From NCBI RefSeq assembly GCF_006345805.1, contig NC_043000.1, positions 30,566,001-30,630,000 of the forward strand: a DNA stretch of 64,000 bases, written 5' to 3'. Position numbers and translations under genes: made by a program. Positions 1,339 to 61,484 of this stretch are shown piece after piece. Position 1 is the first letter of the stretch. Every line of letters starts with the position of its first letter. The DNA comes from Octopus sinensis (Eukaryota). The notes below the pieces were generated by a model. That model saw only the letters and a program-made list of their open reading frames with translations, made no database searches and was not told the origin of the DNA.

Positions 1339-1626
1339 ATAGTATATATGCAAGAGTACTATGGGATCAACTGCATCGTTAAAACTAGAAGTCAAAAATG
1401 CTTCTGTGCTACGGAGTAGTTACAAAGCTTGTACAAGCATGATAGGAAGAAATTCCAGTGAAAAATATATTTGTCTTTTTTTTCTCTGCTAGGTCAGCAA
1501 AAGTAATGCTGGTAAAGATGATATGATTTCGAATTTAGCACCAAACGGAGCTTGATTCTCGTCAGCCAACAACTCCTAAAATTTACGCCTACCATGCTTG
1601 CAAGTTTGTTTGAAGAGGCCAATCAC

Positions 1627-16977: not shown

Positions 16978-18244
16978 TGTATGGTGCAACTGCGTGGATA
17001 ATACCGTACTAAACTCTGGTGCCTCAAGTTAAGTACCTAATTCATCTGAATCTATATTTTGCCTATATGAATGTATACATATATATGCATACGTATATAT
17101 CAATATCTATATATATATATATATACGTCTACATATATATATATATATATCCATATATAAATATCTATATATATGTGCGTGCGTGTGTGTGTATGTCTGT
17201 ATATATGTAATATACACACTATATATTTCTCCGTGTGTTTGCTCATTTGTGTGCATCCGTATGCACGTGCTTCACCAGAGGTGTATATGTGTGGGTCGAA
17301 AATAACATCAGTGAGATTGAGTCGATAAGTGTTAATCGGTTTGTAAGCAAAGAGCAACACTATATATTTGACCTAGACTGTATTGATTACTGGCAATAGC
17401 AAGTGCCGTCTATAATTATATTGTTGCCGATAGAAATCAGCTACATAATTTCAGGGAAATATATTTAAGATTATCAATTGCAGATACAATCGCTCAACGA
17501 TATCTATACGAAATATAAGAATGACTAGTGACTGCGACTTAGAAGCCGTTGGCGCCAACCACTACCGCAACAATGAACTATAAAGAGAACGAAAAGTATT
17601 TAATAATAGTAATAAATGTTTAAATCAGAATCAAAGAATTGCTTAGAAAACATTCCACAGGTGAGGTTTAAAAAGTAGCTATTAGAGGAAAAGCTGATAT
17701 TCTGCATACTGCACTATTAAATAATAATTTAAAGAAAGGGGAGAAATGTTTTTTAAAAATCCGCTCGAGAACTCCGTAAAGCTTTTGGAGAAGGTAACGT
17801 GTTTCCATAAGCTGATGATGATAATGATGACGACGATGACGGCAACGATTATGATGAGGAGGAAGGAGGTGATGATGACGATGACGAGTTCGAAGATGAA
17901 AATGATGATGGTGGTGACGATAATGAAGAAGACAGTAGCGCTGTTGTTGCAGCTGCTGTTGGTGGTGGTGGTCGTTGTTAAGCAAGAAGACGGGTAAGGG
18001 TGATTAGGTGATTGTCTAGGGCTTAAGAGCAGAAGACCCCAGACCTTGGAAAAAAAAAAACATTGTTCGTCTTGTTGTAGTCGAGGGCTATTCGTTGACG
18101 CCCGACACCACTGGGAGGTGGCCCTCGAAGTCGCTGGAAATGGAGATCTCCAGGTCCAAAATTCTTCGACGGCTGTTGTTGCTGCTGCTGCTGTTGGTGG
18201 TGGTGGTAGTGATGGTGGTGCTGGTGATAGTAATGTGAAAACGT

Positions 18245-18292
18245 ATGAGGTTGTATGATATTGAACCAGAGACGCGCCTTTTCGACCGGCGG
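18245..18292 (+). CDS. Candidate first coding exon MRLYDIEPETRLFDRR, unidentified
   Basis: ATG at 18245 opens the only frame reaching the strong donor CGG|GTAAGT at 18293; CpG-richer, trinucleotide-rich upstream region; no partner exon identified. Confidence 0.25.
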
Positions 18293-18559
18293 GTAAGTAC
18301 CATCCTGTATTCCGCAAGAATAGTAACAAAGATCTGAGGTTATTCTACCGTCACCAGACCTGAGGATGGCATTCTTGTCAATTGAATTTCAACACATCGA
18401 ATAACAGCAATTCTTCACGCGAGATGCGATCTCTTTCATAAAACTTAGATTTCTCCTCGTCAGAAAAATTATTTCCTTTTTACGAGGAATGTAGATCCAA
18501 TACTTCTTGATATTTTTCTCATTTATTCAGTTTTTTCGGAAATCATACATCACGTGTTA

Positions 18560-20091
18560 GATTTCCGTCGTATCTCTTACTGAAAATTTCTGGGGAAGTT
18601 TCATTACAGTTAGCTTGCCGCTAGATGTCCCAAATAAGTTTGCAACAATTTTTCATCGATTTCATGACAACATGGAGGTGTGGCTAAATGTTGGTGGGAA
18701 TGTATTAGATCCTGTTATTGTGAACAATGGTGTCAAACAAGGCGCTATTCTAGCGCCAATGCTGCTTTCACTGTATTTTACAGTGGTGTTTGTGATGGCT
18801 TTCAGTGGATGTTCATATGGAAAAACATATCAGATTCCGTACAACTGGGAAACTTTTCAATATAAACGCTTCAGTACAGACTCAAAAGTCAAGTCCTCAT
18901 TTGCTAAGATTATTTCTCTACGCAGGTATCTGTGATCTCTTTGCGCGCACTCAAGAACACAAGCAACACATTAAGGACTCCTTTTCTGATTCACGTTCTC
19001 CGCTTGATCTGACAATAAGTCTTAAAGAGACTTTTGATATACACCATTCTGTTCCAGGAGAGTCATATTTGGAACCAAATTTCCAAGTGTAAAGTCAAAA
19101 AATTCAAATTGTAGATAGGTTTGTGTATCTTGGCAGCTCACTTAGTATTCCACGCACCGTGGCCCATAGGATCTCGATACGGATCAACAAAGCCAGTGAT
19201 ACTTTCAGAAAGGTCGAAAAGCACCAGTGCCACCCCACCCACGTGATATTTCTACTAAAACTACATACTCGTTATGTAGAATGAAGATTTATATAACGAG
19301 TGAGTTGTCCTCCATATTGTAAGCTTGTGAGTTGTAGGTAACCTACTGTAAGCATTTGAAACATTTAGAGCGCTTCCAGCAGCAGTGTCTACGTCGCATT
19401 TTGGGCTTGCTTTGGAAAATAAAGGTGAGTGATGATGAGGTCCTTGAAAAAAGTCTCTGTTGAAGTATTGAGCCAAACATTTCGCAACACTGATTCCGAT
19501 GTGTGGGTTACTTAATGAGAATGGAGAACTACAGGACTCCGAGGCAATTCTTGTATGATGAACCGAGGAATGGTTAGCGTCCATCTCATAAGCCTAAGCT
19601 GAAGTTCAAAGACTGCATATAAACATCCTTGAAGAAATCGAACATCTCGACAAAGAAACTCAATCTGCTCGGACATGATGGAGAAAAGCAAATTATAACG
19701 GAGGTAAGAACTTCGAAATAGCTCGAGAAAATGGAGAGGCTTTTTAGAAAGCGTGGGGATATGAGACTTTCAGGAAATTAGGAGACTAGAGTAAATGAGA
19801 GGCGATGAATGTGGGAGAGTCTGCTTCAGCAGAGCGGGGCTGAAAAGTGACAAAAGAAGCCATGTGCAAGAAGTCGACTTGCATTGCACCATAGACAGCA
19901 TAACAACATGACATGAATCCAGCAAGGTTTTCCTAACAGTTGTGGAGTTTGAAGCGATACATGCATGTGGAGGATGACTAAGATCAAGAGTGACATCCGT
20001 GGTGCTTCAAGTTATGGTTACACTCGAGATCAAGAAAGTGGCCTGGTGCTCCAGCATGACCAGAACTTTCAAGCTGAGACTAGTTAAAGAG
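18560..20091 (+). mobile_element. Decayed RTE-clade LINE (RT domain to 3' end)
   Basis: FHDNMEVWL...NNGVKQGAILAPMLLSLYF, IRFRTTGKLFN, FLYAG (decayed YADD), FVYLGS, C-terminal ECGRVCFSRAGLKSDKRSH zinc-finger-like motif; many frameshifts. Confidence 0.9.
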
Positions 20092-29672: not shown

Positions 29673-30910
29673 TATATATATATATATATATACATACACA
29701 TATATATTCTTTTAGTCTTTTATTTGTTTCAGATATATGACTGCGGCCATGCTGGAGCACAACCTTAACTCGAGTAAATCGCCCCCAAGAATTATTCTTT
29801 GTGGGCCTAGTACTTATTATATGGGTCTCTTTTGCCGAACCACTAAGTTACGGGGACATAAATACACCAGCATCGGTTTTCAGGTGATGTTAGGGGGACA
29901 CACACACAGACACAGACATACACACACATATATACGTGCATTAAGTGGTTACAGTATATTTTAAAAATGTAAAAGAAAATGAAATGTAGGGTAAACACAA
30001 CTTGTATTGAGCCCTCGTTCACCGGATTATGATACACGCACATACACAGGCGCGCATACATGCACATAAGCGCGTGCACTCTTGTCTTGTCACCAATCCA
30101 AGTCTTCCTCTGTCACATTGACTCTAACGATACTCACTCCCGCTACATATCTCTGTAAGTCTTTACATGTATGTCGTTACAATATAAGGATATGTATTTG
30201 ATTCTCATAAAATGTTACAAGTAAATGAGACTAGACGTGTACATTTGCATTCAAATATATATATGTATGTATTGATAAACACACTTATCGATATATCTAT
30301 CTATCTATGTATCTGTCTATCTATCTGTCTGTCTGTCCGTCTATGTTTCTAACACATCTATCTATATATCTTTCTGTCTACATAAAATTGTTCTGTGAGA
30401 GTGTCTGGTGTTTTGGCCCACCATGAAATGGTTTTAAGTGTCTCCTTTTCATTATGTTAAAGCGCTCAGTTTTATGTGAAATCATCTATCACTGTCGAAG
30501 AGGAAACTCTGGTGGTTGTTGATAAATTCAAATACATTAGTAGTACATTCTCCAGTTATGCTACACACGCAGCTGTATTGCTTGCACTAATGTATGTTTG
30601 CTAAACCACATGTACTGTCTGTGAAAGCTGTTAAATATTACCTAGCAAGACAAGGCCACACACATTGAAGTCCTCTCTTGAGCTGATCAACGAAGAGTTT
30701 ACACATTGCTGAAGCGATCGCAGGTGTCCTTCTTTGAATATTTGACAGACGACTACACAAAAGACTACTTACAGTGAACAGATAGAAAACAAGCGCGCAC
30801 AAGTTTGACAGAAAACGCGTTTCACAGATACTCTCAAAACCGTCCCTGAATCGCTTTCAGATCAACCCCTGATTCCTGGGAAATGGAACACAAGATCGCC
30901 CTGCCTAGAA

Positions 30911-31417
30911 ATGAAAGGTTTAGTCCACTTTGAACTTTTAAACCCAAACCAAACAATAAGAAAGGAGATCTACTACGAACAGCTTGAACGGCTTAAGTCG
31001 GTGCTAGAAGAAAAGCGACCATCTTTGGTTGCGGGACGAAAGGTATTCTACCATCAGGATAATGCTCGGCCACATACAGTGAGGATGACATTCCAAAGGC
31101 TTGAGCATTTTGAAAGGGAAACGATGCCCCAACAACCATATTCGCCGGTCATTGACCCATCTGATTATCAGTTATTTCGCAGTCTTCAAAATCATTTGGA
31201 CGGAAAAAATATGAATTCTGTAGACGAGTTCAGAACAGTACCGGAAGAGTATTTTTGGTCACAGACAAGGGAATTTTAGAAGAGGCATTGCAAGTCTACT
31301 AGAAAGATGGAAGAACATTGTAGAAAATGAAGGAGAGGATATTTTAGATTAAAAAAGAAATTAATTTTGAAAAATAAAAGAAGTATAAAAAACAGCATTA
31401 TTTATGGGATGACCCAA
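30911..31417 (+). mobile_element. Mariner (DD34D) transposase 3' remnant with terminal repeat
   Basis: KGLVHFELL...YHQDNARPH...PYSPVIDPSDYQLFRSLQNHLDGK; ends TTTATGGGATGACCCAA|TA. Confidence 0.95.
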
Positions 31418-48259: not shown

Positions 48260-49000
48260 TTAGAAATATTGTGACTTGGATTGTCTGCAGTGTCTTTGAT
48301 CTGGTTTATCACGGTAAAGTGTCCAGCAATAGTTAGCCAGCGTACTGTCATTCCAGATGCCTTGGCACAGTTTCTCCATAGCACTAATGTCCTGGTGGAA
48401 TCTTTCACCATATTCATCAGACACTACTCTGAGGTTATCGGCGAAGAAATCCAGATGGAAGTCCAAGACGTGAACTTTCAGTGACATGCGGGAACCCATT
48501 GCAGAGTAACATTTCAGAAGATCCTTGATGCAATCCTCGTAGTCCACTGCCTTCTTGTTGCCCAAGAAATTCTCAAAGATCCATTGACAGTATTCCCGAC
48601 AGGCAGTTCCAGTTTATCAAGGGTTGTCTTGAAACTGGCATCTTTGAGTACTTTTCTAATTTGGGCTCCGACAAAGATACTCTCTTTCAAATTTGCCTGT
48701 GTGATGTTGGGAAACTTTTCTACAATATACTCAAACCCTCTGTTATTTCTCTTCCCTAGTGTCATTACAAGCTGTTTCATCAGTCCAAGCTTTATGTGCA
48801 AAGGAGGAAATAGGACATTACATGAGGTGTATTCTTGATTCTCGACAGTCCTGGCTGGTATGATGATCTCGGCTGCCAGTTTGAATCCAAATAATGTCTC
48901 TCAGTTGCCCGTCTATCCCATAGACACAAGAAACAACAGTATTTTGTGAAACCTGACTGCATTCACATTAACATTCCATTGACTTTTCGAGCAGCACGCT
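48260..49000 (-). mobile_element. Frameshifted DNA transposase, probably Chapaev3-like
   Basis: QSGFTKYCCFLCLWDRRA, LHIKLGLMKQLV, IFVGAQIRKV, MSLKVHVLDFHLDFF, VSDEYGERFHQDI, ANYCW; the motif series is clear, the superfamily name is from recall. Confidence 0.8.
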
Positions 49001-55059: not shown

Positions 55060-55477
55060 TAAATTAGGGTATCTACGAGATACCGCCATGCTGAAAATAT
55101 CAGCCATGATCTGACTTTAAAACCACCTAAATTGTTCATATATCAACACGAAGAGAAAACACAAAGAGACAAGATGAAACTAGTAAAAAATTACTGGATA
55201 ATTCTAGATCCGAATTTTTGGCTTTGCATTTATGAATGCTTTGCCTCGTCAGTAGAATACACACAGAAGATAAGCATAAATACATATATATATAAATACA
55301 ACATACGAATACTTACATATACGAACGTATACCAACATATATATGCACGTATGCATCATGGCCAGTTCAAAATGCCCGCCGTTTCATTCCATGTGAGATA
55401 TGGTCAAAATATCGTCGCAGTAAATATAGTAGGAAATAAATATAATTCATATAAATAGGGTAAGATCGTTAATTTAA

Positions 55478-55480
<3 letters not shown>
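55054..55480 (-). mobile_element. Hammerhead-bearing Penelope-like/retrozyme element, same family as 60801-61258
   Basis: Minus ATTCTA CTGACGA GGC AAAGCAT TCATAA ATGC AAA GCC AAAAA TTCGGA TC TAGAAT (55201-55258); body homologous to 61021-61165; (TA)n flanks. Confidence 0.75.
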
Positions 55481-55547
<67 letters not shown>

Positions 55548-55634
55548 CGATAAGATCGTTAATTTAAATATATATATATATATATATCTAGTAAAAATAT
55601 TTTCCCTGTAAGTTTGGATTTATTCCCTAATATT

Positions 55635-55670
<36 letters not shown>

Positions 55671-55674
<4 letters not shown>

Positions 55675-55820
55675 AGTAATTTTTACTAGATTCATCTTGT
55701 CTCTTTGTATTCTCTCTGTGTTGCTATATGGACACTTAAGCTGGTTTTAGAGTCAGATCATGGCTGCTATTTTCAGTATGGTGGTATCTCGTAATGCCTT
55801 TATTTGTAATTTTGATAATT
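55671..55820 (+). mobile_element. Inverted partial copy of the same element
   Basis: ATCCAGTAATTTTTACTAG...AGTCAGATCATGGCTG...GGTATCTCGTA is the diverged reverse complement of 55054-55200. Confidence 0.8.
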
Positions 55821-60525: not shown

Positions 60526-60800
60526 TATATATTCTCTTAGGTATCGCGAGACCAATAGACAAATATCGCGGTGTAATTCTCAATGTACGTAGGTTTCAGA
60601 ATGCAAGCGTTAGCTGAGTGTAGAGCGATGATAAGAAAGAGAGATGCCAAAGGAATAAATGTTTATCATGTAAACTCCATTAGCTTGCAGCTGTTTCTGA
60701 TATCAGAAGTAGTGAACTCATGCCTGAGTGCCTGAATATCACCTTAACACTTCATCGGAGTGTGTACGTACATACATACATACATACATACATACACACA

Positions 60801-61258
60801 TATAATTTTAATAATAATTATTACCATTGAAGGTTTTTATTTCCATGCTAGCCACCTAATAAGATCGGTATTCAAATAACGATCTTATCCTTTTCTATAT
60901 AAATTTAGATATTTATTTCGTCATTGTATTCATATATCTACATTTATGTGCTATCTGAGTATATTCCACTGATGAAGGCAGAGCATTTCTTATGCAGAGT
61001 CAGAAATCCGGGATCTGGAATTATTCAGTAATTGTTTTGCTAGTTTATTTTGTCTCTTTGTCTTCTCTCCTGGTGCTGTATTAACATTTAATGTGGTTTT
61101 GGAGTCACGTTTTGGCTGCTATTTCCAGCGTAGTGGTATCTCTTAAAATACCTTAAATTATAATTTTAATAATAATTATTAGCTTTGAAGGCTTTTATTC
61201 CCATGCTGGCCACCTGATAATATTGGTATTTAAATATCGATCTTATCCTTATTTATAT
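60801..61258 (+). mobile_element. Retrozyme-like/Penelope LTR element, 358-bp unit present about 1.3 times
   Basis: About 100-bp direct repeats at 60801-60900 and 61159-61258; contains a complete hammerhead; ends in (TA)n. Confidence 0.8.
60963..61021 (+). ncRNA. Minimal type I hammerhead ribozyme
   Basis: Stem I ATTCCA/TGGAAT, core CTGATGA, stem II GGC..GCAT TTCTT ATGC..GTC, GAAA, stem III ATCC G GGAT, cleavage triplet ATC (cut after 61015); 10.1-11.1 is A-A rather than G-C. Confidence 0.75.
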
Positions 61259-61260
61259 AT

Positions 61261-61311
<51 letters not shown>

Positions 61312-61484
61312 TATAGAATGATTGTCGTCATTTCTTTCTCTTTTGCCTGCGTTGTTTGCCTTTAAGTGCTGTGGTTTTACTGGGATCTCCCTTTTAAGTA
61401 GAAAGAATAGCCATAACTCTTTGACTGCTATTTCTAAATTCGGTGTGTGGTGAGGCAAATCGTTGCTAAACCCTTAATTACTTA

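Follow-up and report, generated by a model that had tools for sequence, protein, structure and literature searches.

A non-coding hammerhead repeat of Octopus sinensis with Penelope-type insertion footprints and an extra base in the ribozyme core

The hammerhead motif and the repeat copy that carries it

The window analysed here is a 64,000-nt stretch of the Octopus sinensis genome (contig NC_043000.1, positions 30,566,001 to 30,630,000), and positions are counted from its first letter. The original prediction had named the parts of a type I hammerhead ribozyme between 60963 and 61021 on the plus strand, and all of them were found there in order (the numbering C3 to C17, with 10.1 and 11.1, follows standard hammerhead usage). 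As read from the sequence, the 5' strand of stem I (60963-60968) pairs with 61016-61021 and is followed by the box CUGAUGA (60969-60975) and by an extra A (60976) that is optional in the family. Stem II (60977-61001) is made of 3 bp, a 3x3 purine internal loop, 4 bp and a 5-nt loop, and contains one G.U pair in this copy. A second extra A (61002), which exact-match counts show to be family-wide, precedes GAAA (61003-61006). Stem III (ATCC-G-GGAT, 61006-61014) is self-complementary with a 1-nt loop, and C17 lies at 61015, with the predicted cut after C61015 at an AUC site. The conserved type I core, CUGANGA ... GAAA ... UH between stems I-III, is present, but the prediction of a canonical core holds for CUGAUGA, GAAA, stems I and III and AUC and fails at stem II, whose closing pair is kept from lying directly beside G12 by the extra A on each side, two bases that the original prediction did not list.

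A type I descriptor matched the window at 2 sites, where 60 Markov shuffles gave 0.07 on average; the loose core pattern alone was not above chance in the window. The other descriptor match (1513-1565, minus strand) has CUGACGA, a 4-bp stem, GAAA and a non-palindromic stem III, and may be due to chance. An Rfam scan gave no hammerhead match in the window, a result that is uninformative because Rfam also missed the hammerheads of five loci, including other Penelope-type ones from the same genome (0/5). As a monomer the 59-nt motif folds no better than shuffled sequences (z = 0.04), and the fold predicted for this copy pairs the CUGA box with GUCAG instead (-18.8 vs -7.0 kcal/mol for the monomer ribozyme). 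The pair probability of stem II is 0.22-0.26 in the window copy and ~1.0 in the family majority, while stem III, taken as a two-strand duplex, has a predicted energy of -9.9 kcal/mol.

Alignment to the family majority shows that 60801-61158 (plus strand) is one family monomer with an internal deletion of ~130 bp near 60932: it matches majority positions 1-125 and 257-481 at 93-94% identity, and the long family copies hold the ~130 bp that it lacks. Downstream lies a tail (61159-61262, plus strand), which is the start of the next monomer and stops at the second of two fixed 3' ends of the family. The first 100 bp of the unit had been reported to recur 358 bp further on, and a repeat with this spacing exists (112 nt, 87% identity to 60801-60912), but units of 358 bp do not form a tandem: the second copy lacks a ribozyme and gives way to (TA)n after ~105-112 nt. 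The 358-bp spacing results from the internal deletion, whose junction has a single match genome-wide, so a unit of this length is private to the window copy. The 5' portion of the monomer contains a self-complementary hairpin (60860-60889, plus strand), which the tail repeats immediately ahead of the second 3' end and whose family form folds at -12.7 kcal/mol. The copy is flanked on its 5' side by a (TACA)n run (60765-60802) and runs into its (TA)n target microsatellite at 61250-61315 (plus strand).

The locus is a single, likely inert copy, ordinary in itself, that has decayed and lost internal sequence; the repeat to which it belongs is non-coding and dispersed. The prediction of circles of about 360 nt finds no support in a family monomer of ~488 bp, in the one ribozyme present here, or in the rarity of multimers. 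A second family copy, of a sister subfamily, occupies 55064-55793 (minus strand) with an inverted 5' piece at 55670-55793; the G12 of its hammerhead (55201-55258, minus strand) has changed to A. Elsewhere in the window, 17682-18388 (minus strand), 18561-18935, 30809-31279 and 48514-48900 hold what we take to be a poly-Q/poly-H frame, a LINE RT fragment and DNA-transposase-like fragments.

A dispersed family with a monomer of about 488 bp

We searched the microsatellite-rich, 2.72-Gb host genome at the DNA level with the window repeat and obtained 3,123 first-look candidates, the best of them at 87-93% identity (each genome search scored the best 40-150 candidates). The majority sequence of 15 long copies measures 481 nt and, with a 7-nt junction, gives a monomer of ~488 bp, with which the spacings of dimers (487-596 bp) are consistent. 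As predicted, the unit has no coding capacity, the longest ATG-initiated ORF on either strand of a doubled monomer being 48 aa. A 20-mer from the 3' end matched exactly 1,454 times, so the family has at least 1,454 3'-end copies, while an inner 24-mer matched 321 times and an 18-mer spanning the extra A and GAAA 181 times. Since this 18-mer occurs in 12 of 39 whole ribozymes sampled without bias, the window-like subfamily can be estimated at roughly 600 whole ribozymes, some of them from one segmental duplication. The original prediction had called the class known and the family possibly new, and the family does appear to be new in the literature searched.

The second window copy led us to the sister subfamily, which is ~80-85% identical to the window-like one and often lacks the loop-3 base, leaving stem III a perfect palindrome. 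Among 65 copies placed in a tree, identity to the majority averages 95%, the closest independent pair reaches 97% and the tree is star-like, from which we conclude that the family arose in a past burst and that this sample contains no young copies. Before the tree and the 80-copy footprint counts below were made, copies from segmental duplications were collapsed to one. One block of several kb, in which a family copy and an RTE-like LINE lie together, occurs in at least 16 places at 94-98% identity, several of them near contig ends (L061-L073, L078, L080). The LINE, which stands beside many copies, was considered as a partner and rejected, since the association stems from segmental duplication of a single locus (16 of 52 exact 31-mer matches). 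Pieces of the family also occur in assembled contigs of four putative RNA runs under two organism labels; the head-to-tail junctions in these contigs exist as DNA too, so nothing follows from them for expression or circles.

An extra base beside G12 and conservation of the ribozyme

The A before GAAA is fixed family-wide: exact matches number 181 with it and 0 without it, and it is carried by 33/35 and 30/30 copies of the two subfamilies. The A after A9 (60976 in the window) is optional, with 192 exact matches that have it and 198 that do not, and 24 of 35 copies in an unbiased sample are of the short-core form that lacks it. Most family copies therefore carry a lone extra A beside G12 with no base opposite. 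An A.A pair as the family norm, an impression given by window-like copies, was rejected on the same unbiased sample. In the tree of 65 copies, those with the short core do not form one clade.

Small Penelope-linked hammerhead variants are reportedly the subject of Lunse et al. 2017. The minimal metazoan Penelope hammerheads of Cervera and de la Pena 2014 (PMC4209133) resemble the family in the CUGANGA-H core, the extra base after A9, the G10.1-C11.1 pair, the palindromic stem III and the predicted activity as dimers. In their consensus C11.1 is followed directly by G12, whereas the family has a fixed base in between; one row of Figure S3 in that paper has AGAAA replacing GAAA. Hydra-clade hammerheads (Craig et al. 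2021, PMC8557442) usually combine a 4-bp stem III and a 1-nt loop with a mismatch at the base of stem II. In File S2 of that paper the mismatch is mostly U.U, with C.A in one non-Hydra entry, while our family has A.A or, in most copies, the single A with nothing opposite. The lone-A form is not described in the available portions of PMC3088659 or PMC6765202, nor in the literature listings searched, and Lunse et al. 2017 or the supplement of PMC4209133 may already show it.

In the long-core form, a frame of 19 codons starts at the AUG within CUGAUGA (60970-61030 in the window), and short-core copies have lost it; in an Anolis element, an ORF begins at ribozyme stem II (PMC11167929).

Three unrelated families of the same genome also have an A after A9 and a purine before GAAA, in the context of different stems (46, 15 and 1 distinct matches in the loci fetched). 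The largest, with 548 exact matches, has A.A or A.G where stem II meets the core (L215, L181-L210). Wherever both are seen, GIY-YIG fragments in most cases lie ~1.0-1.7 kb upstream of its hammerhead, with RT motifs further up; the hammerhead sits within a 3' UTR of more than 1 kb belonging to RT and GIY-YIG fragments. The encoded protein is closer to Hydra-1 (E 3e-9 and 1e-7) than to Neptune-like elements (E 6e-4 and 0.46). The published Octopus Hydra-1 hammerhead motif occurs in 155 places of this genome with at most 3 mismatches.

We then compared the ribozyme between the two subfamilies. All 11 core bases and C17 are unchanged, and the differences concern N7 (which takes U, A and C across the family), the optional base after A9, a C-G to U-A change in stem I, a G-C to G.U change in stem II, the loops and the loss of the loop-3 base. 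Over the whole ribozyme, the subfamily majorities differ at 12/60 columns, no fewer than the 19/137 downstream. Pairing is kept in 95.5% of cells in 60 distinct rows (93-95% for stem II), against 15-44% in slid controls; the stem I double change, seen in 23 of the 60 rows, is one inherited event. A family consensus without the conserved core or the stem pairing had been named as the outcome that would speak against the prediction, and both are retained. A lower substitution rate in the core (2.6% vs 4.6-5.4%) was rejected as evidence of selection, the copies having been picked by core words and the rate being biased accordingly.

The ribozyme was likely kept under selection in the source elements. 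We consider it unlikely that the extra A before GAAA disables it, with the motif travelling as a passenger through protein binding or descent, an idea compatible with the explanation that we favour below. The weak predicted fold of the monomer and the preference of the window CUGA box for GUCAG would suit a disabled ribozyme, as would 5' ends that gather at the predicted cut at about the level of a flat distribution (see below) and the finding that 8 of 9 frog retrozyme dimers were uncleaved in vitro (Li et al. 2026, bioRxiv 10.64898/2026.07.22.740005). Against it stand the 11 core bases and C17, kept between subfamilies while neutral sites changed, and the recurrence of a purine in this position in three more families whose stems differ. 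We tentatively suggest that, if dimers cleave, the purine that several Penelope-type families of this genome place between C11.1 and G12 is an insertion that the ribozyme tolerates beside its catalytic G12 and that escapes Rfam and the usual descriptors. In that case each genome would contain hundreds to thousands of ribozymes that have gone uncounted. A base fixed beside G12 across subfamilies and in three further families bears on how much change the hammerhead core tolerates.

Insertion footprints and mode of spread

The 3' ends of 80 non-redundant copies fall mostly at two places: 38 at the monomer boundary and 23 at +86 to +135 nt, with 10 early, 5 in between and 4 running on. TA-rich sequence follows 44 of 66 family 3' ends, and an inverted family piece lies upstream in 31/80 copies. 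The 5' ends of 92 pieces, picked by a word downstream of the ribozyme, form a smooth gradient of truncations with no pile-up at the cut site, since 4/92 lie within 3 nt of the predicted cut and ~4 are expected by simple arithmetic (52 ends spread over 90 nt). Some 174 whole ribozymes in 234 loci include 5 same-strand pairs less than 700 bp apart and no trimers. In L011, L105 and L354, two ribozymes lie head-to-tail on one strand, L384 has two same-strand ribozymes of the sister subfamily, and L353 is a local duplication. No target-site duplication was readable in the microsatellite flanks. The footprints are thus of Penelope type, with 5' truncation, inverted 5' pieces, partial tandems, two fixed 3' ends and (TA)n targets.

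Inversions and a preference for (TA)n have been described for Penelope-like elements (Craig et al., PMC8557442), and the tail of one such element has been traced to internal starts of reverse transcription (Frangieh et al., PMC11167929). That element, Anolis Poseidon (Frangieh et al. 2024), shares with our family two fixed 3' ends downstream of the ribozyme and AT-rich targets; it is autonomous with a tail of 30-40 bp, while the octopus family has no ORF and a tail of ~100 bp. There is also a close likeness to the pLTR hammerheads of Hydra-clade elements (Craig et al. 2021, PMC8557442, File S2), which also have a type I core, a 4-bp palindromic stem III with a 1-nt loop, an unpaired stem II foot and a ribozyme ~100-200 nt from the 3' end, in elements with (TA)n targets and inverted 5' pieces. 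Unlike them, the family has no ORF and a longer stem II with an internal loop.

We propose that the ~488-bp non-coding repeat was probably copied in trans by a Penelope-like RT-endonuclease, most plausibly of the Hydra clade. A head-to-tail source locus would give an RNA longer than one unit, and the borrowed protein would nick (TA)n DNA and start reverse transcription inside this RNA at one of two fixed sites ~100 nt apart, so that two 3' ends and a tail would result. Synthesis would usually stop early or switch strand, leaving truncated and inverted 5' ends. In the source elements the palindromic stem III likely allowed the ribozyme to act in dimeric form, and cut RNA was apparently not the usual template. 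Of the original prediction, a non-autonomous hammerhead retroelement of the Penelope or retrozyme kind agrees with the footprints and the missing ORF, while the 358-bp unit and the array at the window locus fall away.

The copies could instead be pieces of the 3' end (pseudo-LTR) of an autonomous Penelope-like element, its ORF-bearing members having escaped sampling, but we consider this very unlikely. The true autonomous families here also survive mostly as short 3' fragments, and our searches return top-scoring copies, as this reading would have it. Long copies, however, contain no ORF on their course from the tail across the complete monomer to the ribozyme and 3' end, and the upstream flanks of the 80 copies share no common unknown sequence.

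Metazoan non-LTR retrozymes (Cervera and de la Pena 2020, PMC7229834; Li et al. 2026) resemble the family in their non-coding, low-GC unit of a few hundred bases, the single type I hammerhead per unit and the existence of head-to-tail copies. The family differs in consisting mostly of solo, truncated copies in arrays of at most 2 units among the loci sampled. Spread in the classic manner of such retrozymes, through cut and ligated RNA circles of ~490 nt reverse-transcribed for more than one round, seems to us fairly unlikely. Copies do often cross the head-to-tail junction, a few have two same-strand ribozymes, and smooth 5' ends are compatible with a template that, being circular, has no 5' end; axolotl retrozymes with U.U at the stem II base, moreover, cleave and circularise (PMC7229834). 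Yet described retrozymes reach long arrays (PMC7229834; bioRxiv 10.64898/2026.07.22.740005), against 5 close pairs and no triple here, and uncut RNA was the main template of the sole Penelope-like element reconstituted in vitro (PMC11167929). Li et al. define active retrozymes by two consecutive units with whole ribozymes; the window copy has a single ribozyme and a private deletion, and a few other loci have two. Those authors propose that animal retrozymes are non-autonomous Penelope derivatives (bioRxiv 10.64898/2026.07.22.740005), and copying in trans, as we favour, adds a cephalopod-type example to this recent case with insertion footprints as evidence.

The genome search suggested for copies, arrays and a linked Penelope ORF thus yielded copies in abundance and few arrays, and in the partial sample of loci covered no autonomous element sharing sequence with the family was found. 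Similarity to retroelement protein pieces appears in 29 of 234 family loci, where the cases inspected proved to be LINE pieces or independent neighbouring elements, each ending in a 3' end of its own. Pfam returned no match for a GIY-YIG fragment. Beyond chance neighbours, no DNA common to the family was present in 30 GIY-YIG loci, 10 Hydra-1 loci or 47 loci of a second Hydra-type family. The genome is rich in ORFs of Hydra and Neptune type, and several Hydra-type families lie next to family copies within (TA)n runs, the pattern expected of a common target preference. Since no partner was found at the sequence level, the Hydra link is drawn from two features, ribozyme shape and target preference.

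A Neptune-like family beside one copy (L112-L122; 14,059 first-look candidates, open frames to ~1,000 aa) was rejected as partner for its different ribozyme, which has the core CUGUYGA, A6 being replaced by U. In another Neptune-like family (L148, L167, L170) the 3'-end core reads UUGAUAA ... GAAA with a 5-bp stem II, a variant of the U3-A8 type. Hammerhead-like motifs with stem II inserts of ~30-90 nt and a palindromic stem III were seen in L060 (minus strand, near 2500), L008 (near 1200-1330) and L090/L091. Finally, a hammerhead family with the same extra purine (L126-L140; 2,794 first-look candidates) has units of ~310-355 bp and includes a trimer (L139:1511, 1866, 2197), with no long Penelope-type ORF seen nearby; it is a better retrozyme candidate than the window family.
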